A stretch of DNA of 53,846 bases, from sequence record PP180005; one strand, 5' to 3'. The notes under the pieces were generated by a model. It was not told the origin of the DNA and ran no database searches. It worked only from the letters and a program-made list of their open reading frames with translations. Positions 7,358 through 42,379 of the stretch are shown one piece after another (position 1 is the first letter of the stretch; the number at the start of each line of letters is the position of its first letter). Made by a program: the position numbers and the translations under genes. This DNA comes from Escherichia phage mEp554.

Positions 7358-7459
7358 TTATGGATTGACTAGAAGGAACAAACCGCCGAACAAAGCGACG
7401 TTAACAGCGATTGCAGCAGCGATGGCAAAAGCCAGGGCGAAAACGTGTTTACCGTCCAT
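7358..7459 (-). CDS. Single-helix hydrophobic mini-protein (33 aa)
   Basis: MDGKHVFALAFAIAAAIAVNVALFGGLFLLVNP; GAGAGGA SD. Confidence 0.35.
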   Translation of the reverse strand: MDGKHVFALAFAIAAAIAVNVALFGGLFLLVNP

Positions 7460-10532: not shown

Positions 10533-11170
10533 AAACAGAATTACACAAAAAGCTGTGGACGATTCAACAAACGCTGAACGCACCGAAAAATCAGCGCAAT
10601 AATTTCGGTGGGTACAATTACAGGTCGGCGGAGGATATTTTGGAGGCGGTTAAGCCACTTCTTCAAAATATAACGCTGACTGTTAGCGATGAAATCGTCC
10701 TGATCGGCAATCGCTATTATGTGAAAGCCACTGCAACACTAAGCGACGGAGAAGATGAAATTGCGGTAACTGCTTACGCCAGGGAAGAAGAAAGCAAGAA
10801 GGGAATGGACGCAAGCCAGTTAACTGGCGCGACATCAAGTTATGCGCGTAAATACGCGTTGAACGGCTTGTTCTGCATTGATGACGCAAAAGATCCTGAT
10901 ACTGATGCTTACGCGAAACAGACAAATCAACAGCCGCGACAGCAGAAAAACACGCCGAAACAACAACCACAGCAGCAGAAAGCGCCGCCAAATCCTGATG
11001 AAGTATTAGCACGTTTCTGTGATGCGGCAGCGAAAGCGCCGGACGCTAACAAGTTGCGCGAGATATTCGGGAAGTGCTGGAAGATACTTCCTAAAGATTC
11101 AGAGCAGCAACAGAAAGCTAAAGACGTTTATGATATTCGCTTAAAAGAGCTTAACGGGGAGATCGGTTAA
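10529..11170 (+). CDS. erf: Erf-family single-strand annealing protein
   Basis: GGYNYRSAEDILEAVKPLL motif typical of ERF family; GTG start with AGGAG SD. Confidence 0.8.
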   Translation: MKTELHKKLWTIQQTLNAPKNQRNNFGGYNYRSAEDILEAVKPLLQNITLTVSDEIVLIGNRYYVKATATLSDGEDEIAVTAYAREEESKKGMDASQLTGATSSYARKYALNGLFCIDDAKDPDTDAYAKQTNQQPRQQKNTPKQQPQQQKAPPNPDEVLARFCDAAAKAPDANKLREIFGKCWKILPKDSEQQQKAKDVYDIRLKELNGEIG

Positions 11171-11637
11171 TGAGCTTAAATTCAATCACGCTGGGCGGTA
11201 ATATCGGAAATGATATGGAAGTTCGCTACACGCAAAACGGTAAAGCTATTGGTAGCTTTCCGTTAGCTGTAACGAATGGCTACGGTGATAATAAGCGGAC
11301 AATGTGGATCACTTGCCTGGTATTTGGCGAGCGTGCGGAAAAATTAGCTCCACATATTCGTAAGGGTGGAAAAATAGTGGTAAGCGGTCGCCTGGATGTT
11401 CGGCAATATGACCGGAACGACGGCACGAAGGGGACGGCGGTAGAAGTGGCGGTCAATGAATTTGAGTTCATGGCTGTTAACCAGCAAGGCCAACAGCAAG
11501 GCCAGCAGCAGGGCCAGCGCCAGCCGCCGCAACAGAATCAAGGCGGCGGCAATCAACCTCCGATGGATTTTGACGATGATATCCCATTTAGTTGCGTGGG
11601 GTTACAATATGGAAAACATAGAATCTACGCGTTGTAA
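11170..11637 (+). CDS. ssb: Single-stranded DNA-binding protein with 15-aa extension after the acidic tip
   Basis: OB-fold SSB N-terminus; Gln/Gly-rich linker; DFDDDIPF tip at 11566-11589 followed by SCVGLQYGKHRIYAL before stop. Confidence 0.85.
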   Translation: MSLNSITLGGNIGNDMEVRYTQNGKAIGSFPLAVTNGYGDNKRTMWITCLVFGERAEKLAPHIRKGGKIVVSGRLDVRQYDRNDGTKGTAVEVAVNEFEFMAVNQQGQQQGQQQGQRQPPQQNQGGGNQPPMDFDDDIPFSCVGLQYGKHRIYAL

Positions 11638-12139
11638 ACGGTGTATAAAATGTGGGGCGTTATTGCCCCTTTCTTCTTTCTATAAACATAAATTAATGGC
11701 TGACGGTCACTCAAATAAATGTAAGGAGTGTACGAAGCAAGATGTAAAAGATAATCGCAAGAAAAATATAGAACGCTACAGGGAATACGACAGAGAGCGC
11801 AACCAATCAGGGGATAGGAAAGCGTTAAGACGTCGTTATCGTCAAAGCGATGAAGGTAAGGAGGCGCATAAAAGGGCTTGCGACAAGTGGGTTAAAAATA
11901 ACGAGAAGAAGCGCCACGCCGAAATAATGGTAGGTAACGCTATCCGCGATGGCAAATTAATTAAACAACCTTGCGAAGTATGCGGCAGAGAGGACCGCGT
12001 ACACGCGCACCATTGCGATTATGATAAGCCGCTCGATGTTATGTGGCTTTGCCCGATATGCCATCGAGCGTGGCACAACGAACACGGTGAAGGAGCTAAT
12101 GCACACGACGAGGTATTAAATGGTGAGCGAATATCTTAA
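11609..12139 (+). CDS. HNH endonuclease (candidate homing endonuclease)
   Basis: CEVCGREDRVHAHHCDYDKPLDVMWLCPICHRAWH HNH motif; N-terminal CKRCIKCG zinc-finger; starts inside SSB 3' end. Confidence 0.8.
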   Translation: MENIESTRCKRCIKCGALLPLSSFYKHKLMADGHSNKCKECTKQDVKDNRKKNIERYREYDRERNQSGDRKALRRRYRQSDEGKEAHKRACDKWVKNNEKKRHAEIMVGNAIRDGKLIKQPCEVCGREDRVHAHHCDYDKPLDVMWLCPICHRAWHNEHGEGANAHDEVLNGERIS

Positions 12140-12401
12140 AGCACCGCCACCGCCGCGAACAAAAGAGCAAGTTCTAAAAGAAGCCCGTGATCAAATCGAT
12201 CGCGGGCTTTTTTTATGCGGCACGGCGGCGGATCGAATGGCGAAAAGATTTAGTGACCTGTACGCAAAACAAATATGGTTCGACAACTGGCAGGCAAGTT
12301 TTTACCCACTGCAAAGAAAACCGGATATGCATTGGCCTGAATATGTCGATCCACGTATGCGCAAATATCGCGGGCGTATGGGCCAGGTTATTAACGATTA
12401 A
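12120..12401 (+). CDS. Hypothetical protein
   Basis: ORF in operon; no recognisable motif. Confidence 0.5.
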   Translation: MVSEYLKAPPPPRTKEQVLKEARDQIDRGLFLCGTAADRMAKRFSDLYAKQIWFDNWQASFYPLQRKPDMHWPEYVDPRMRKYRGRMGQVIND

Positions 12402-12415
12402 TGAGGTATTAAATC

Positions 12416-12640
12416 ATGATCGAAGAAAAAGAAATTGATAAAGAAACGCCTGATGGTCGTGATGAGCTTATTTATTTTGATGGCGGCATGTATGAGATCG
12501 ATACGTCGGCTGGCTGGCATGATAAATGGCCTCTGCCTACTCGCAAGGAATTGAGCGATCGTAAATCATTCGGCGAAGATGCAGAACGCCTTGCTAATAA
12601 CAAGTGGCTTAACAAGTTTATTGCGGAGGGCGACAAATGA
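12416..12640 (+). CDS. Hypothetical protein
   Basis: ORF in operon; no recognisable motif. Confidence 0.5.
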   Translation: MIEEKEIDKETPDGRDELIYFDGGMYEIDTSAGWHDKWPLPTRKELSDRKSFGEDAERLANNKWLNKFIAEGDK

Positions 12641-12750
12641 ATTTTGCAAAAATTGCCGCACTGATTGCGGCCCTGTCTATCGCCGTGGTGTATCTGAGCG
12701 TATCTCTTTGTATCACGGTAGCGATCATTAAACTTATTACTAACATGTGA
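12637..12750 (+). CDS. Single-helix hydrophobic mini-protein (37 aa)
   Basis: MNFAKIAALIAALSIAVVYLSVSLCITVAIIKLITNM; ATGA overlap with upstream stop. Confidence 0.4.
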   Translation: MNFAKIAALIAALSIAVVYLSVSLCITVAIIKLITNM

Positions 12751-12758
12751 GGCCAATC

Positions 12759-12878
12759 ATGAAAGTCGGTAAGGATATTGTGACAGTCGCGTTTTGCATT
12801 ATTTGTTTCCTGTTTGTGGTTGTGTTTTGTGGCGCATTTGCCGCGCTGGTTAGCCTTATTTTCAGGGGATTGTTGTGA
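12759..12878 (+). CDS. Single-helix hydrophobic mini-protein (39 aa)
   Basis: MKVGKDIVTVAFCIICFLFVVVFCGAFAALVSLIFRGLL; stop overlaps next start (TGATG). Confidence 0.4.
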   Translation: MKVGKDIVTVAFCIICFLFVVVFCGAFAALVSLIFRGLL

Positions 12879-13150
12879 TGAAAACATGGGATGCAAAGGC
12901 TGGTGATCTTGTCGTATTGCCTGAATATCGTGATGACCCTGGCCTGGTTGTACTGAATAAGATGTGTAACGATCTCGAACGTCCATTACTGGTTAAATAC
13001 CTGGACGGAACAATCATAGAGCCGCGTTTCTTTGATGATATTGAACTGAAGGCCCGCAATGTTCGCGTTAAGCCGTTCCGGGCTTATGTTGAAGACCACT
13101 GGCGGAAATTGTTCGCCGGACTGAATGGGATGTACGGCGTATGGCTATAA
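12878..13150 (+). CDS. Hypothetical protein
   Basis: ORF in operon. Confidence 0.5.
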   Translation: MKTWDAKAGDLVVLPEYRDDPGLVVLNKMCNDLERPLLVKYLDGTIIEPRFFDDIELKARNVRVKPFRAYVEDHWRKLFAGLNGMYGVWL

Positions 13151-13332
13151 AGGAAGTAAAGGTCAAAGACCTGAAAGGCGGTGAGCGATTAAAGGCGTGG
13201 TGGGGTCGTGAGTTTACAGCCGCTGCCTTCATGATCATGCATGGCGGGGAAGTCGTTATATACGATGAAGACCTGAAGGAAGTAGGCAGATGGCATCTTG
13301 AGCAATATATCGAGGTGTTAGATGAAAATTAA
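13141..13332 (+). CDS. Hypothetical protein
   Basis: ORF in operon. Confidence 0.45.
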   Translation: MAIKEVKVKDLKGGERLKAWWGREFTAAAFMIMHGGEVVIYDEDLKEVGRWHLEQYIEVLDEN

Positions 13333-13654
13333 ATTCCATAAAGGTTATGATTCGGTCACTAACAAGTTATCGCTATTTATTGAGTTCGAGCGCCGGATCG
13401 TGGTTGTTCCTTATGCGCGTCGCTTTAATGATGCGGCAGGGCGGCGGCAATTCGCATTAGATATGATGTTGCGTGGCTGCGGCCTTATGCGCCCGCTATC
13501 TGATTTAAACCGGATGATGCCTGGATCGTTCGGTCAGATTGATGAAATTGAAATAAGCCAGGACGAGCTAAAACGGGCGCGTGATTTGTTCCTTTCAAGT
13601 GAAGGGAACCCGTTTAATCCAGAGACTGAAATGAAATGGCATCATCCACTATAA
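13322..13654 (+). CDS. Hypothetical protein
   Basis: ORF in operon. Confidence 0.5.
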   Translation: MKIKFHKGYDSVTNKLSLFIEFERRIVVVPYARRFNDAAGRRQFALDMMLRGCGLMRPLSDLNRMMPGSFGQIDEIEISQDELKRARDLFLSSEGNPFNPETEMKWHHPL

Positions 13655-13667
13655 AAGGATAAATATC

Positions 13668-14288
13668 ATGAAAGACATCAAAACGGCTTATTCACTAGGC
13701 AGCGATGGCATGTTAATCACTCGCTACACTGAAGATGCAAGTTTTCATGAAGTGGAAACGAAGGACTATCACGAAGTGCTAAAGGATATGGAAGCTGGAG
13801 CGTATGACGCAGATTTGAACCTGGCGTTACAGGTTGCTGATATTGTGATGGAAGCGTCGATGCGCGACTATGTGTCTTTGGATAATGAAGAAAAAACGGC
13901 TGTAGCTCGTTATGTCTTCTGCCTCACTTTTGTGAAACGCATGGAAGAAGAATATGGTCGCGTGCCAGTGCCGGAAGAGCTTGATCCGCTGGCGTTCGGC
14001 AGTGCTGTTATCTTCCCGTTAGACGAAAACCATATGGGTAGCGCTGCACTGTATTCTGTGCGCGGCGTAATGAAGAAAATATTTGAGGCCAAAGCGCTAC
14101 ATAAGTGCATTGATGAAGGGCACAACGAAGAAGACGTAAGAGCGATCATGCCGCTGTTTTATGGCGAAATGGTTGGTATTAACATGCGTGCAAATGATTT
14201 AGGCGTGCAGGCGGCTATATCTATGCTTAATGAAGCACGAAAAATGTCACAGCCAATGCCTGAACCTGAAAAGCGCGTACTTCATTAA
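13668..14288 (+). CDS. Hypothetical protein (206 aa)
   Basis: ORF; no recognisable motif. Confidence 0.55.
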   Translation: MKDIKTAYSLGSDGMLITRYTEDASFHEVETKDYHEVLKDMEAGAYDADLNLALQVADIVMEASMRDYVSLDNEEKTAVARYVFCLTFVKRMEEEYGRVPVPEELDPLAFGSAVIFPLDENHMGSAALYSVRGVMKKIFEAKALHKCIDEGHNEEDVRAIMPLFYGEMVGINMRANDLGVQAAISMLNEARKMSQPMPEPEKRVLH

Positions 14289-14291
14289 TAT

Positions 14292-14307
14292 TGTGATTGC
14301 GATCACA
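14292..14307. promoter_or_regulatory. Perfect CRP-consensus palindrome TGTGATTGCGATCACA
   Basis: TGTGA-N6-TCACA; intergenic; followed by TACAAAATGTATA motif (minus orientation) and a TGTGATCGCGA half-site. Confidence 0.4.
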
Positions 14308-14387
14308 TAGCTATACATTTTGTACTGTGATCGCGAATCCGTTTTGTAAACTGAAAGCAAAAGGTTTACGGTACGGAGGGAAATAAG

Positions 14388-14606
14388 ATGGCCCGCGAAT
14401 TAATGCTTTATTGTGTTGAGGGTGGAGTAGGTCACGATGCCTACGTCGCTGGGAAAGGCTATCCAGCCGATGAAGTGCTTTCTAATATGCACTTCCGGGA
14501 AAATGAAAGCCGGGTGTCTGTGTGGAAACGGTGCGTTGATGGTATTGAGGTTGTAAGCATCGAACGGTATTTAGGCACGTTTGATTACGGTGTTATTGAG
14601 GCTTAA
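14388..14606 (+). CDS. Hypothetical protein
   Basis: GGAGGG SD. Confidence 0.5.
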   Translation: MARELMLYCVEGGVGHDAYVAGKGYPADEVLSNMHFRENESRVSVWKRCVDGIEVVSIERYLGTFDYGVIEA

Positions 14607-14608
14607 TT

Positions 14609-14701
14609 ATGGACGACACATTGTTTTATATGTGCTGTTGCTGGGGTTTTATTGCCTTATGCCTGTTTATCAGGTGGTTTATTGAATACCATATGAGGTG
14701 A
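14609..14701 (+). CDS. Hydrophobic mini-protein (30 aa)
   Basis: MDDTLFYMCCCWGFIALCLFIRWFIEYHMR; GAGG SD. Confidence 0.35.
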   Translation: MDDTLFYMCCCWGFIALCLFIRWFIEYHMR

Positions 14702-14704
14702 TAT

Positions 14705-14899
14705 ATGAAAAAGGTTGGCGGTTATACGTTGCCTGATAACGCTAAATTGGCGGGAATTGGTTTTAGCGGCTGTTATTACTACAACAATGTAGGCGATATT
14801 TATTGCGTGCGTTTTGTCGATGGTGTACAGCATTTTCGCAGACTACCAGACATTGAATTGAGTAAACTTATCCGTGAGGTGTCATTACATGCGGTTTAA
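14705..14899 (+). CDS. Hypothetical protein
   Basis: ORF in operon. Confidence 0.45.
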   Translation: MKKVGGYTLPDNAKLAGIGFSGCYYYNNVGDIYCVRFVDGVQHFRRLPDIELSKLIREVSLHAV

Positions 14900-15092
14900 A
14901 CATTACAGAGAATGGAAGATTCCAGAATCAGCAACAAAGGCAGCGCCCGGAATATTTTCGGGCGTTTATTTTTATATGGAAGGTAAATGGTATTTCGGCA
15001 GCAGGCCGGATCACTATTATCAAGAAGTATGCAAATCTCACACATGGGACATTAAGGAGCGCGTGCAAGGCGGTGTAATAGACGAGGTTTAA
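14889..15092 (+). CDS. Hypothetical protein
   Basis: Start at MRFKHY with GAGGTG SD. Confidence 0.45.
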   Translation: MRFKHYREWKIPESATKAAPGIFSGVYFYMEGKWYFGSRPDHYYQEVCKSHTWDIKERVQGGVIDEV

Positions 15093-15093
15093 A

Positions 15094-15330
15094 ATGATTA
15101 ATGGTTTTTTAAGCTGGTTAAGAGTGTGGTTTTTTGCCACGCTTTTCGTTTTTTTGGCGTTCAGCGGTGTCATTGTCATATTTACGCTGGCGATGATGTT
15201 CATTACATGGTCAGTACCTGAATTTAACGACTTTGGAGCTATTATTGCCATCGCCCGCGCTTTATTGGCTGGTAGCGCATTTATTGGTTTTTGCTGGACT
15301 GTAGCGCCTGATTGGGGTGATGAATGGTGA
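15094..15330 (+). CDS. Hypothetical membrane protein (two hydrophobic segments)
   Basis: FFATLFVFLAFSGVIVIFTLAMMFI and AIIAIARALLAGSAFIGFCW stretches. Confidence 0.5.
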   Translation: MINGFLSWLRVWFFATLFVFLAFSGVIVIFTLAMMFITWSVPEFNDFGAIIAIARALLAGSAFIGFCWTVAPDWGDEW

Positions 15331-15334
15331 TCCT

Positions 15335-15568
15335 ATGGCTTTGTTCAATATGTCAGAACTGCAATTTAATGCCGTAAAAGCTGCCGCCCGCGCAGCGCTT
15401 TCTGCTTGCAAAGCTGAGGTAGAGAAAAACGGCTACAGCGATAAAGCCACGCGGCTGATATTAGATAAGCATTATCGCAAGGTCGCCCCGCTGATCAGCA
15501 TTGAGCGCTTTGTGTGGTTGGTGGGGTATTTAAACAACCGTTGGGGAACGGAACAGGATTATTTCTAA
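15335..15568 (+). CDS. Hypothetical protein
   Basis: Start uncertain (15320 or 15335). Confidence 0.4.
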   Translation: MALFNMSELQFNAVKAAARAALSACKAEVEKNGYSDKATRLILDKHYRKVAPLISIERFVWLVGYLNNRWGTEQDYF

Positions 15569-17874: not shown

Positions 17875-17896
17875 AATTTACAAAATGGCGTCATTG

Positions 17897-17912
17897 CGTG
17901 ATGCGGATCACA
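17897..17912. promoter_or_regulatory. CRP-like palindrome CGTGATGCGGATCACA
   Basis: GTGA-N6-TCACA; centred about 60 bp upstream of predicted TSS of promoter CTTGTT-N17-TATACT (17929-17957). Confidence 0.35.
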
Positions 17913-18033
17913 TAATGGCGCTTTTTGTCTTGTTTGCATGTATCCATTTTGTATACTTCAAGCAAACAAAATGCTCTTTAAAAATCCGGCAGCGCTGAAA
18001 TGCGTAGAAATCACCTGAAAAGGAGAGAGCATT

Positions 18034-24576: not shown

Positions 24577-24598
24577 CCCGGCCCCGTGCCGGGTTTTT
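24577..24598 (+). terminator. Rho-independent terminator about 30 nt downstream of the candidate late promoter (tR'-like)
   Basis: CCCGGC-CCCGT-GCCGGG hairpin followed by TTTTT. Confidence 0.6.
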
Positions 24599-24618
24599 GC
24601 TTTGTTGGAGGTAAATCT

Positions 24619-24819
24619 ATGTTCGACAGAATACGGGAGGCGTGTGCGTATGTGACTGGTGCAGTAACCGCTTTTTTCGGTGCTATAACCATCAATGACG
24701 TCGCTGTTTTCGTTGGTATCTTATCAACCATAGGCACATTTGCCGTTAACTATTACTTTAAATCACAGGAGAACAAGCGAGCGCAAGAGGAACACGACGC
24801 GCGAATGGGGAATAAGTAA
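24619..24819 (+). CDS. Holin (pinholin-like, two TM segments)
   Basis: 67 aa; GGAGG SD; resembles phage 21 S-type pinholin architecture; precedes SAR endolysin. Confidence 0.7.
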   Translation: MFDRIREACAYVTGAVTAFFGAITINDVAVFVGILSTIGTFAVNYYFKSQENKRAQEEHDARMGNK

Positions 24820-25311
24820 ATGATTAGCCAATCGCTGAAAAACAAGATTGTTGCTGCGGCGGCTGGTGGTGCAATCGCTATTGCGGCGGTGATGATTAAG
24901 CCATTAGAGGGCGTGGAATACGATCCATATCGTGATGTTGTTGGCGTATGGACTGTTTGCTACGGTAACACCGGAAAAGACATCATGCTTGGGAAGACTT
25001 ACACGCAATCAGAATGCGATGCTTTGCTGAACAAAGATCTACACAAAACCGCAAAAGCGATTGACCCATATATCAAAGTCGAAATATCAGATTTTACCCG
25101 CGCTGCACTTTATTCCTTCGCCTATAACGTAGGCGCAACCAACTTCAAAACATCAACCTTATTAAAGCTACTCAATGACGGCAAGAAATCGGAAGCGTGC
25201 GCACAGCTTAAACGCTGGGTATACGCTGGCGGTAGGAAGTGGCAAGGCCTGGTAAACCGCCGCGATGTTGAATATGCCGTTTGCGAATGGGGGGAAACGT
25301 GGACAAGGTGA
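24820..25311 (+). CDS. SAR endolysin (GH24 lysozyme, phage 21 R-like)
   Basis: N-terminal weakly hydrophobic [21 protein letters not shown] segment; [34 protein letters not shown] lysozyme core. Confidence 0.85.
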
Positions 25312-25769
25312 AGGCGTTAATTATCGCCGCTGTTGTTTGCATTATTGCCAGCCTTACCGCCGTAACGTGCCATTACCAGAGTGAGGCGACAAGGTTACAG
25401 GAAGAGTTAACGACCACGCAAGGCGCACTGAAAACAGCAAGTAACACTATTCAGCAGATGAAGGAGCGAAACGCCGAACTGTCAAAACTTGATAAGAGGT
25501 ATCACGATGAGATTAAAGCTATCAGATCTGACATTGCCGATCTGCGCACTGGTATTGATAACGGCACTATCAGGCTGCGCGTCAACGCAATACCCGTGCG
25601 AGTGTCCGACCCCGCAGGAACCGCCAGCGCCATTAATGGAGCCTCCTGTAGACTCACTCCCGACGCTGAATCGGCTTATCTATCCCTCAGAGAACAACTA
25701 AAAGAGAAAGACGCGAAGATAACCGCGCTTCAGGGATACATCAAAACGCAGTGCTTACGCAAAGAATAA
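25287..25769 (+). CDS. Inner-membrane spanin Rz-like
   Basis: N-terminal [15 protein letters not shown] then coiled-coil; overlaps endolysin 3' end; start uncertain (25281-25308). Confidence 0.7.
25507..25701 (+). CDS. Outer-membrane lipoprotein spanin Rz1-like, embedded in Rz in +1 frame
   Basis: Lipobox LSGC after signal segment; proline-rich [14 protein letters not shown]. Confidence 0.65.
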   Translation: MRLKLSDLTLPICALVLITALSGCASTQYPCECPTPQEPPAPLMEPPVDSLPTLNRLIYPSENN

Positions 25770-26608: not shown

Positions 26609-26704
26609 ATGGGTATCCTTCTGGTATGTGTATTTATTGCTTTAGTTGCGATGGAGGTATTGCTCCCCATTTGGGCGGCGACCTGGATGATGCAAGATGA
26701 TTGA
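26609..26704 (+). CDS. Mini-gene 1 of array: hydrophobic peptide (31 aa)
   Basis: MGILLVCVFIALVAMEVLLPIWAATWMMQDD; GGGGGTGA SD. Confidence 0.4.
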   Translation: MGILLVCVFIALVAMEVLLPIWAATWMMQDD

Positions 26705-26771
26705 CCCGCTCATTATCCTTTCTGCCTGCGTCGCTGTATGGCTGGCGATCATGATATTCATTGAAAGCTAA
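26697..26771 (+). CDS. Mini-gene 2 of array (24 aa)
   Basis: MIDPLIILSACVAVWLAIMIFIES; start overlaps mini-gene 1 stop. Confidence 0.35.
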   Translation: MIDPLIILSACVAVWLAIMIFIES

Positions 26772-26781
26772 AGGCGTTCAC

Positions 26782-26856
26782 ATGAATATTTACGATCTAA
26801 TCTGGTGGTTGTTGGTCGCCGTCATTATCTATTTCTGGTGGAAGAATGTTGTATAG
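26782..26856 (+). CDS. Mini-gene 3 of array (24 aa)
   Basis: MNIYDLIWWLLVAVIIYFWWKNVV; AAAGG SD. Confidence 0.4.
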   Translation: MNIYDLIWWLLVAVIIYFWWKNVV

Positions 26857-26864
26857 GTGACGGC

Positions 26865-26963
26865 ATGGATATATTCGAATTACTGGCGATTATGTTCGGA
26901 ATGATGTTAAGCATTGTCGCCATAATTATCATCATCGGCCTTGTTATGGGTAGCATCAAATGA
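26865..26963 (+). CDS. Mini-gene 4 of array (32 aa)
   Basis: MDIFELLAIMFGMMLSIVAIIIIIGLVMGSIK; AGGTGA SD. Confidence 0.45.
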   Translation: MDIFELLAIMFGMMLSIVAIIIIIGLVMGSIK

Positions 26964-27040
26964 ACGCATACGAAATGCTATTGCTGGTGGCTGTTATTAC
27001 AGTTATCGCCGTAGATTTTTATCGAGGGTTGAAAAGATGA
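26960..27040 (+). CDS. Mini-gene 5 of array (26 aa)
   Basis: MNAYEMLLLVAVITVIAVDFYRGLKR; ATGA overlap. Confidence 0.4.
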   Translation: MNAYEMLLLVAVITVIAVDFYRGLKR

Positions 27041-27108
27041 GAGAAGCAGACTTCTTTTGCATGATTATAGTGATCGTCATCGTTGCCGTGCTTTTAAGCG
27101 TTAACTGA
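27037..27108 (+). CDS. Mini-gene 6 of array (23 aa)
   Basis: MREADFFCMIIVIVIVAVLLSVN; GAGGG SD; ATGA overlap. Confidence 0.4.
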   Translation: MREADFFCMIIVIVIVAVLLSVN

Positions 27109-27125
27109 ATCGCAGGAGGTTAAAA

Positions 27126-27194
27126 ATGAAATTGCTTGATTTCTTTTTCCTGATTGTTGCGATTGTTCTTACCATGACCGCGCTGACTCAATAG
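27126..27194 (+). CDS. Mini-gene 7 of array (22 aa)
   Basis: MKLLDFFFLIVAIVLTMTALTQ; AGGAGG SD 7 nt upstream. Confidence 0.45.
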   Translation: MKLLDFFFLIVAIVLTMTALTQ

Positions 27195-27202
27195 GTGAAT
27201 AT

Positions 27203-27277
27203 ATGGAAACTATCGAAGCAGTATTATTCGTGTTCATCGCTGCGGTTGTTATTGTTGGGTTTATTATCAATGTCTGA
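27203..27277 (+). CDS. Mini-gene 8 of array (24 aa)
   Basis: METIEAVLFVFIAAVVIVGFIINV; AGGTGA SD. Confidence 0.45.
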   Translation: METIEAVLFVFIAAVVIVGFIINV

Positions 27278-27338
27278 CGTCGATTTCTTAATCATAGCTA
27301 TAAGTTCGCTGTTAGTCGTTATCGTTTTCTTCGCATAA
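27270..27338 (+). CDS. Mini-gene 9 of array (22 aa)
   Basis: MSDVDFLIIAISSLLVVIVFFA; start overlaps mini-gene 8 end. Confidence 0.35.
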   Translation: MSDVDFLIIAISSLLVVIVFFA

Positions 27339-27348
27339 AGGGTAAGCA

Positions 27349-27432
27349 ATGAAAGAGCTATTCGACTGGTTGGAAGTATTAACATACTGCGCAAGTTTTG
27401 TGGCTTGCGTATATATCATCAACAAATATTAA
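27349..27432 (+). CDS. Mini-gene 10 of array (27 aa)
   Basis: MKELFDWLEVLTYCASFVACVYIINKY; AAGGG SD. Confidence 0.4.
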   Translation: MKELFDWLEVLTYCASFVACVYIINKY

Positions 27433-37562: not shown

Positions 37563-37578
37563 CCGGGCCTTTATCTTT
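37551..37578. terminator. Bidirectional rho-independent terminator
   Basis: GCCCGG-AATTAA-CCGGGC hairpin flanked by A5 upstream and CTTTATCTTT downstream; ends both the chaperone gene (+) and the convergent minus-strand moron. Confidence 0.65.
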
Positions 37579-37891
37579 ACTTGTATGCTGCGAATCGGCA
37601 TCTTGCTTCATCCAGGTCATGAACATCGTACACGTTATCGTAAATGTAAGTTGCTACCTGTGCTTTCTGTACGTCAGTTGCGTTCGGGAACTCCATGCTT
37701 ACGAAAGTCACTGCATCAACGTAGTGTTTGAACATCTTTTTGTTAACGCACAGTGCGTAAATCAATACGGCAGGCCAGCAAATCAGCGCGCCAAAGAATG
37801 CCATGAGCATATTCAGATGTTTTTTCTGAGCTACAACCATAGTTGCGACGAATCCGATGAAGCAAATTACCAGTTCCATGATGCACCCCAT
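37577..37891 (-). CDS. Membrane protein (two TM segments), opposite-strand moron
   Basis: MELVICFIGFVATMVVAQ...LMAFFGALICWPAVLIYALCV then soluble C-terminal domain. Confidence 0.55.
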   Translation of the reverse strand: MGCIMELVICFIGFVATMVVAQKKHLNMLMAFFGALICWPAVLIYALCVNKKMFKHYVDAVTFVSMEFPNATDVQKAQVATYIYDNVYDVHDLDEARCRFAAYK

Positions 37892-37998
37892 TAATTACGT
37901 TTATCTTCGGTTGTCATTGCCAGCACTAGCACAGCCATCACATTAAATGCTAACCATGCTGTAATATATACATCTATAACCGTTTTGATTGTGTCCAT
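37891..37998 (-). CDS. Single-helix hydrophobic mini-protein (35 aa), moron
   Basis: MDTIKTVIDVYITAWLAFNVMAVLVLAMTTEDKRN; stop overlaps next start. Confidence 0.4.
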   Translation of the reverse strand: MDTIKTVIDVYITAWLAFNVMAVLVLAMTTEDKRN

Positions 37999-42241: not shown

Positions 42242-42379
42242 TTAGTAGTGAATATACAGCAAACTCATTGGGTGAGCGTGCGCCATATTATTGGCTATCG
42301 CCGCCCAGTCCCAATCTGCAGCATGAGCGCCAAATACTATCAGTCCCATTATTATTAGCGCCAAAACTTCTATTTTCAT
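42242..42379 (-). CDS. Small secreted protein with signal peptide (45 aa)
   Basis: MKIEVLALIIMGLIVFGAHA then ADWDWAAIANNMAHAHPMSLLYIHY. Confidence 0.4.
   Translation of the reverse strand: MKIEVLALIIMGLIVFGAHAADWDWAAIANNMAHAHPMSLLYIHY

Follow-up and report, generated by a model that had tools for sequence, protein, structure and literature searches.

Do two very short hydrophobic open reading frames (ORFs), which follow one another in the early region of Escherichia phage mEp554, encode proteins, and if so, what could such proteins do for the phage? The DNA analysed here is the whole 53,846-nucleotide (nt) stretch of sequence record PP180005, referred to below as the window, and the two frames, ORF A of 37 amino acids (aa) and ORF B of 39 aa, lie in it between a 74-aa gene and a 90-aa gene. 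We conclude that A and B are real, selected coding sequences, because their frames and translation signals are conserved, the ratio of nonsynonymous to synonymous substitution rates (dN/dS) is frame-specific, and an antisense ORF that overlies them is mostly closed in relatives; that they are genuine genes for membrane microproteins we regard as highly probable. As to their role, our best explanation, to which we give a probability of roughly 0.45, is that the two are a fixed pair of microproteins, each crossing the inner membrane once, that modulate a host inner-membrane function early in infection. The locus comprises the following elements:

12637–12750, plus strand: ORF A, ATG start, 37 aa, MNFAKIAALIAALSIAVVYLSVSLCITVAIIKLITNM, predicted single-pass hydrophobic microprotein
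12759–12878, plus strand: ORF B, ATG start, 39 aa, MKVGKDIVTVAFCIICFLFVVVFCGAFAALVSLIFRGLL, predicted single-pass hydrophobic microprotein
12625–12629, plus strand: Shine-Dalgarno sequence GGAGG of A, inside the end of the upstream 74-aa gene, 7 nt before A
12637–12640, plus strand: ATGA stop/start overlap of A's ATG with the TGA of the 74-aa gene, which couples A to that gene
12748–12761, plus strand: stop of A and Shine-Dalgarno sequence of B, with the TGA (12748–12750) overlapping GAGG (12749–12752) and the ATG of B at 12759
12876–12880, plus strand: TGATG overlap of B's TGA with the ATG of the downstream 90-aa gene

Conservation and Selection

Relatives were gathered by anchoring on the neighbouring 74-aa gene, which makes the conservation test independent of the mini-ORFs themselves; 38 IMG/VR genomes, 6 phage records, and the window gave a set of 45 genomes. 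In every one of them the genes flanking A and B stand 230–241 nt apart, and B is intact in all 45 and A in 44, the exception (L026, IMG/VR 3300045988_060283) being a metagenome contig with a 1-nt deletion in an A-run. Five more genomes, retrieved with a degenerate DNA pattern of A's motif, carry both ORFs in the same context, which brings the overall count of intact frames to 49/50 genomes for A and 50/50 for B, always between the same two genes. Alleles differ in length by whole codons (35, 37, or 39 aa for A and 38–40 aa for B). The signals are equally constant: CGGAGG with the ATGA overlap before A, GAGG or GGGG upstream of B (in the window GAGG stands 6 nt before B, across an A–B spacing of 8 nt), and a stop/start overlap after B (TGATG, TAATG, or ATGA) were each found in 45/45 genomes. 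The preliminary description of this DNA had given both ORFs with their ATGA and TGATG overlaps exactly, and had named frame conservation in relatives among the ways to check them; about 50 relatives do keep the frames under purifying selection.

The pooled dN/dS, calculated by the Nei-Gojobori method (NG86), is 0.20 for A and 0.33 for B, next to 0.15 and 0.195 for the flanking genes. For ungapped orthologues read in the proposed frame it is 0.17 (A) and 0.34 (B), whereas the shifted frames, which have stops in every sequence, give 1.37 and 2.11 for A and 0.74 and 1.5 for B. The substitutions in both ORFs swap hydrophobic residues for hydrophobic residues, and 10–11 positions per peptide are invariant.

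Predicted Peptides

Both peptides follow one layout, namely a few polar residues, a run of 26 (A) or 29 (B) consecutive uncharged hydrophobic residues, which in A extends from I6 to I31, and a tail of 4–6 residues at the C-terminus (KLITNM in A, RGLL in B). The Kyte-Doolittle maxima over 19 residues are 2.5 for A and 3.0 for B, and the Hessa-scale sums of both are negative, ranging from -1.5 to -4.8 kcal/mol over 17–21 residues; the AlphaFold model of B, built from a 16-sequence alignment, is a single helix spanning residues 2–38 with a predicted local distance difference test (pLDDT) score of 88. The one transmembrane (TM) helix originally predicted for each ORF is therefore upheld by the hydrophobicity scales and, for B, by the AlphaFold helix, and both A and B have the makings of a small single-pass membrane protein, that is, a conserved ORF of ≤50 aa with its own signals and a predicted helix of bilayer length.

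The conserved core of A can be written KIAxL..A...YLSxSLYITVAIIKLI, with AxxxA motifs and a stripe of Tyr, Ser, and Thr, its conserved positions being K5, A7, L9, A11, Y19, S23, I30, L33, and I34; that of B is VAFC(I/V)ICFLF..V.(F)CGA.AA, with a GxxxA small-residue motif and conserved positions K5, C13, F17, F19, G25, A28, and A29. For A, conservation along a helical face was weak (251/5000 shuffles), and for B there was none, so that it is not used as evidence. A and B are listed as hypothetical proteins in the PHANOTATE- or Pharokka-style annotations of five relatives (PP180001–PP180004, PP925836), where A appears as mEp010_29, mEp515_31, mEp044_27, mEp013_28, and MagusPhagus CDS0113.

Phage Clade and Distribution

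By megablast, the region 11000–15500 of the window matches the mEp021-like (mEpimmI) temperate coliphages mEp010, mEp021, mEp515, mEp044, mEp013, and MagusPhagus at 85–91% identity, and on this similarity mEp554 is placed among them. The mEpimmI phages are non-lambdoid, Nus-dependent siphoviruses that have been reported as prevalent in the human gut (PMC11893012).

Neither A nor B has a significant match in Pfam, PHROGs, NCBIfam, or PADLOC, the best E-values (0.2–0.9) falling short of the cut-offs. A profile of B run against all 1.84 billion cluster representatives recovered 3 true clusters, all from the mEpimmI clade, and a word-indexed search with a fused A+B profile recovered 40-aa variants of B, one A-type variant of 72 aa with a frameshift, and rare forms that were fused or frameshifted. 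No match outside the mEpimmI phages was obtained by tblastn against 50,697 phage records, and among the 2.9 million viral contigs of IMG/VR only mEpimmI-like contigs match the degenerate DNA pattern of A's motif. The region is present in 35 of 5,426 complete E. coli genomes, always in single copy and chromosomal. Both the A-type and the B-type sequences are held together by synteny (74-aa DUF2737-like gene ... 90-aa gene) and by recognizable similarity, and on this distribution A and B are classed as clade-restricted orphan families that form a core feature of the mEpimmI clade.

A and B as One Module

The alleles of A fall into three classes, and the most divergent class of B occurs with only one of these. 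Nucleotide distances for A and B are correlated with r = 0.74, compared with 0.27 for the upstream gene and A and 0.47 for B and the downstream gene, and one relative (L007) has an upstream gene like that of the window and yet carries a divergent 35/38-aa A–B pair. These sequence patterns suggest that recombination tends to carry A and B together as one cassette, a movement that fits a joint function, and we consider that A and B probably do function together.

Early Operon and Flanking Genes

The operon context, which was taken from the annotations of relatives and from the published work on Gp17 antitermination and nut sites (PMC11893012), is a series of early genes in the order N-like, erf, ssb, (HNH), abc2, DUF2737-like 74-aa gene, A, B, and 90-aa gene. 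The N-like antiterminator of the mEpimmI phages, Gp17, works at three nut sites, and overexpression of the Ipe protein of mEp021 is reported to cause haemolysis and cell death (PMC11893012). The mEp021 record includes an annotated ipe gene, and with an Ipe homologue in the operon, the early operon of A and B already has a documented envelope-active product. The stretch 15094–15568 (plus strand) of this operon carries the homologue and, directly before it, a 78-aa protein with long hydrophobic stretches.

The gene that follows B is:

12878–13150, plus strand: downstream 90-aa gene, its start overlapping the stop of ORF B

In E. coli prophages this gene is labelled by NCBI as a "toxin-antitoxin system toxin subunit"; it has no Pfam or NCBIfam match, so the toxin label could not be substantiated, and its AlphaFold model (pLDDT 40) is unusable. 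A profile of the gene found no carrier among the GTDB species representatives, the gene being confined to the mEpimmI clade. Further upstream, between ssb and abc2, an endonuclease gene (about 11640–12139, plus strand; PHROG 2340, E=6e-45) is shared with mEp021 and mEp515 and absent from mEp010, mEp044, mEp013, and MagusPhagus, where ssb is directly followed by abc2; it looks like a mobile homing-endonuclease insertion.

Proposed Role and Alternative Explanations

In the role that we favor for the pair, A and B, which lie within the long early operon antiterminated by the N-like Gp17, would be produced only in lytic growth or upon induction, once this operon is derepressed and antiterminated. 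Ribosomes finishing the upstream gene would go on to translate A, B, and then the downstream gene, and this passage through overlapping frames would closely link the synthesis of the two peptides. The peptides would insert into the host inner membrane, with an orientation that a weak positive-inside signal suggests to be N-in/C-out, and may pack together or onto a membrane protein of larger size via AxxxA in A, GxxxA in B, and the Tyr/Ser/Thr stripe of A; such packing would modulate a host inner-membrane function in the manner of MgrB and AcrZ. By analogy with these, the mode of action may be the binding and modulation of a specific membrane protein rather than a general perturbation of the membrane, a view that we hold tentatively and at somewhat less than even odds. 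More speculatively, the pair might be an mEpimmI-specific two-subunit early effector that binds one specific machine of the host inner membrane, such as FtsH, a divisome component, or a transporter or DNA-entry channel, and reprograms it in the first minutes of lytic growth, which in so specific a form is doubtful.

Several points weigh against this explanation, or against parts of the evidence on which it is built. The pooled pairwise dN/dS values are drawn from related, non-independent sequences, and the TM prediction for A and B rests on hydrophobicity scales and one AlphaFold model. The databases hold rare frameshifted or fused variants (L026; P0024 and P0026–P0028), which could be assembly errors or cases of occasional pseudogenization; the kinds encountered are frameshifted forms of B, a fusion of B with the 90-aa gene, and an A–B deletion fusion. 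The original mEp021 record (MH706966) has no annotated genes here and instead shows a terminator prediction, TERM_2, within ORF A. The co-inheritance of A and B may merely reflect their 8-nt spacing, and helix-packing motifs of this sort are common in any Ala/Gly-rich TM helix. Our literature search yielded no expression, localization, or phenotype data on A or B in any relative, and the sole paper on the group (PMC11893012) does not discuss them.

On one alternative view, the stretch is non-coding regulatory DNA or RNA, either an intra-operon terminator or an antisense gene, and the ORFs are accidental: TERM_2 is annotated in MH706966 at a GCCGCA...TGCGGC hairpin within ORF A (12655–12671 of the window; 14882–14898 of MH706966), every allele has a GC-rich hairpin 18–45 nt into ORF A, and a 122-aa antisense ORF covers 12618–12986. 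However, when each peptide was re-encoded with synonymous codons picked at random according to the codon usage of the phage, the shuffles of the Ala-rich A peptide were as stable as the hairpin (fraction at or below the observed energy 0.08–0.80), which makes the hairpin a by-product of AAxxAA coding; in view of this lack of excess stability a selected RNA hairpin or terminator in ORF A was rejected, and the copy in the window also has no T-run. The antisense ORF, open in just 2 of 41 relatives, was rejected as a true gene, and the codon-position pattern together with the frame-specific dN/dS points to coding DNA, so that the non-coding alternative is largely refuted and retains hardly any of our credence. 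A consensus scan found no sigma-70-like promoter on either strand within or beside 12637–12878 (the scan is crude, and a weak promoter could escape it) and no plus-strand terminator match inside the A–B pair; on the minus strand, a single terminator-like hairpin was seen, which is no more than chance would give (5 found versus 3.2 ± 1.9 expected). A and B might also be translated merely as spacers that hold ribosomes on the mRNA, for coupling or for protection from Rho polarity, the peptides themselves being irrelevant, as might be supposed from junctions that are a stop/start overlap or a very short gap in 45/45 genomes and from an operon that relies on antitermination (PMC11893012). The constrained amino-acid sequence (dN/dS 0.17 and 0.34, hydrophobic-for-hydrophobic substitution, 10–11 invariant positions) is at odds with a pure spacer role, and a spacer would accept any sequence or length, yet the alleles remain at 35–40 codons; we find it very improbable.

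If the peptides do matter, A, B, or both could be membrane-perturbing peptides in the manner of type I toxins or YohP, with no specific partner required, whose oligomers would partly dissipate the proton-motive force early in infection and thereby shut down host metabolism or block superinfecting DNA. In size, in their single predicted TM helix, and in the shortness of their tails, they agree with what has been described for small membrane toxins (<60 aa, one helix; PMC12648545). The 27-aa YohP depolarizes E. coli membranes (PMC12719787), ORF B is extremely hydrophobic, and abc2 and the gene for the cytotoxic Ipe (PMC11893012) are examples of host-directed genes already present in the early operon. 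Against this, type I architecture was not seen, there being no candidate for an own or antisense promoter and a minus-strand hairpin at chance count, whose stability is explained by Ala codons; uncontrolled early depolarization would damage the phage's own replication, and specific packing accounts for the conserved polar stripe and the small-residue motifs no less well. We consider general perturbation unlikely. Superinfection exclusion, with the pair as an injection-blocking device in the inner membrane, is improbable to a greater degree. T4 Imm, P22 SieA, and HK97 gp15 are small inner-membrane exclusion proteins of phages, and proteins of this sort are the classic solution to exclusion. The mEpimmI group does invest in exclusion, by means of Lpp/Cor-like lipoproteins (PMC11893012). 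The exclusion genes of temperate phages are, however, normally expressed in the prophage from a promoter of their own, whereas A and B are embedded in a repressed, antitermination-dependent early operon, in which the consensus scan found no promoter for them, and they have no PADLOC or PHROG match.

Other Mini-ORFs of the Window

The preliminary description had also pointed to four solitary hydrophobic mini-ORFs and to a tandem array elsewhere in the window. Three of the solitary frames show coding signatures:

14609–14701, plus strand: solitary hydrophobic mini-gene, 30 aa, MDDTLFYMCCCWGFIALCLFIRWFIEYHMR, in the same early operon as A and B
7358–7459, minus strand: solitary hydrophobic mini-gene, 33 aa, MDGKHVFALAFAIAAAIAVNVALFGGLFLLVNP
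37891–37998, minus strand: hydrophobic mini-gene, 35 aa, its stop overlapping the start of a 104-aa gene (37577–37891, minus strand)

The frame at 14609–14701 is kept in 40 of 43 relatives with a dN/dS of 0.13 and is annotated in relatives (e.g., as mEp010_37). In the other three (among L007–L044), an unrelated single-helix mini-ORF, MWLIDLILACWLIVLVGFVGYFAWEEGKHNGRY, stands at the same position, a replacement that by its sequence is non-homologous yet retains the same kind of product. That at 7358–7459 is found in 38 of 40 relatives, 3 of the copies having ATT at the aligned start, with a dN/dS of 0.17 in frame versus 2.13 and 1.33 out of frame. The mini-gene at 37891–37998 has a dN/dS of 0.26 and occurs in all 8 relatives that have the 104-aa gene, and only in those. 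The two-gene cassette that they form (37577–37998, minus strand) lies on the opposite strand among the tail genes, immediately upstream of the one for the tape measure; the 104-aa protein is hydrophobic and probably a membrane protein, and the cassette, for which no PHROG or PADLOC match was found, looks like a moron and could be expressed from the prophage. Beside other small minus-strand genes of the tail region, there is also a 45-aa ORF (MKIEVLALIIMGLIVFGAHAADWDW...) with a signal-peptide-like N-terminus at 42242–42379 (minus strand).

The fourth solitary frame, given as 17884–17997, did not hold up. Its coordinates were off by one, the frame truly spanning 17885–17998, its dN/dS is 0.64, internal stops occur in 6 of 27 unique relatives, and there are Arg substitutions within the supposed TM stretch. 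With such weak constraint, the mini-gene was rejected, and the sequence is better read as a terminator:

17887–17922 (stem-loop), then TTTTT to 17927, plus strand: probable intrinsic terminator hairpin (not a gene), 15 bp, conserved

The intergenic region 17875–18033, which follows the cytosine methyltransferase gene, folds strongly (z-score -4.4), and among 30 unique relatives the sequence differences fall only in the loop and leave the stem almost unchanged. The region after the cytosine methyltransferase is where nutR2 and terminators have been placed (PMC11893012); the hairpin could not be matched to the t1–t5 numbering of that paper.

The array is as follows:

26609–27432, plus strand: tandem array of 10 mini-ORFs of 22–32 aa, between a 185-aa gene and terS

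The members all combine a short acidic N-terminus (MxxxD/E-F/L) with a single hydrophobic stretch. Nine of the 10 carry coding signatures, with an in-frame dN/dS of 0.04–0.33 and conservation in 47 relatives; the first member (26609) gave no tblastn match and is unverified. Cross-matching between members and their variable copy number suggest a paralogous, expanding family.

In total, about 14 conserved ORFs of ≤39 aa with a single predicted helix are found in 54 kb, which is roughly a tenth of the coding sequences of relatives, whose records list 122–137 features, a few of these being terminators. An annotation-free pipeline scored on codon usage and applied alike to both genomes counts 7 mini-TM ORFs in the window and 0 in lambda, in which the annotated small coding sequences kil and orf28 are not hydrophobic; P22 has one annotated candidate, NinA. 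The "unusually large complement" of membrane microproteins that had been claimed for the phage is thus plausible from the sequences, on a comparison with two genomes (lambda 0, P22 1) that are only small baselines.

Significance

Single-helix microproteins are easily overlooked, and at this locus the first annotation of mEp021 was blank, with a terminator placed inside. In a clade that is reported as prevalent in the human gut (PMC11893012), the pair belongs to the core and is under selection, and with about a tenth of the mEpimmI genes encoding such peptides, these phages offer a compact, testable set for studying the roles of phage membrane microproteins. The discovery of a specific host target for A and B would establish phage host-takeover factors of a new class and might open a new way into an inner-membrane process; should they form a two-subunit effector, they would, together with the array and the solitary genes, point to a phage strategy in which many single-helix microproteins serve as membrane-targeted takeover tools.

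Comparison with Known Systems

Like canonical holins, A and B are small, phage-encoded, predicted membrane proteins. The phage has a lysis cassette of its own, assigned with PHROGs:

24586–24819: holin
24820–25311: endolysin
25281–25769: Rz

Unlike this 77-aa holin, A and B are about half its length and have no charged C-terminal tail, and a holin role was excluded on account of their position in the early operon after abc2 and of the separate, canonical holin-endolysin-Rz cassette (24586–25769), which lies 12 kb away in the late region. The lipobox of exclusion lipoproteins ([LVI][ASTVI][GAS]C; Cor/Lpp-like, Llp) was not found in A or B by sequence inspection: the residue before each Cys of B is F or I (VAFC, CIIC, VVFC), and the sole Cys of A, preceded by SL, occurs in the window allele, all others having Tyr at this position. 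The early phage proteins SPO1 gp56, lambda Kil, and T4 Imm are small and non-essential and act on functions of the host envelope; they are longer than A and B, Kil does not belong to the TM proteins, targets or phenotypes have been characterized for Imm and gp56, and no similarity of A or B to any of the three was detected.

The length, extreme hydrophobicity, and single helix of A and B are also those of the type I toxins (TisB, IbsC, ShoB, LdrD, and Hok), and depolarization is plausible on this likeness. What the class further comprises, a stand-alone unit with an antisense or divergent RNA antitoxin, was not found, since the scans gave no promoter candidate for either a separate unit or an antisense RNA; unlike these toxins, A and B would be co-translated with their neighbours, and they match no family model. 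Among phage genes, P22 NinA (26 aa, MTIYITELVTGLLVIAGLFIWGRGKT), one of the little-studied hydrophobic mini-ORFs of lambdoid phages, is similar in being a tiny single-helix ORF whose start overlaps the preceding stop in an antitermination-dependent early operon, whereas it is solitary, lies in the nin region of the rightward operon rather than after abc2, and is not homologous; there is one NinA in P22, compared with about 14 mini-TM genes in the mEpimmI phages.

Among bacterial small membrane proteins, MgrB, AcrZ, and MgtS bind larger membrane proteins, as in the MgrB-PhoQ and AcrZ-AcrB pairs (PMC12648545, PMC7549839). A and B share with these proteins and with YohP, which serves as the insertion model, a length below 50 aa, a single (in A and B predicted) TM helix flanked by tails of only a few residues, and the lack of a catalytic domain, and, by analogy with MgrB, AcrZ, and MgtS, their function would be expected to arise from helix-helix contacts in the inner membrane. 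They have no sequence relationship to any of the four (no NCBIfam or Pfam match), and, unlike these stress-regulated chromosomal proteins, A and B are phage-encoded, paired, and translationally coupled in an early lytic operon. The A–B pair, which databases already record under the name of hypothetical proteins, adds a new orphan to a known and poorly understood class, the single-pass microproteins of phages and bacteria.

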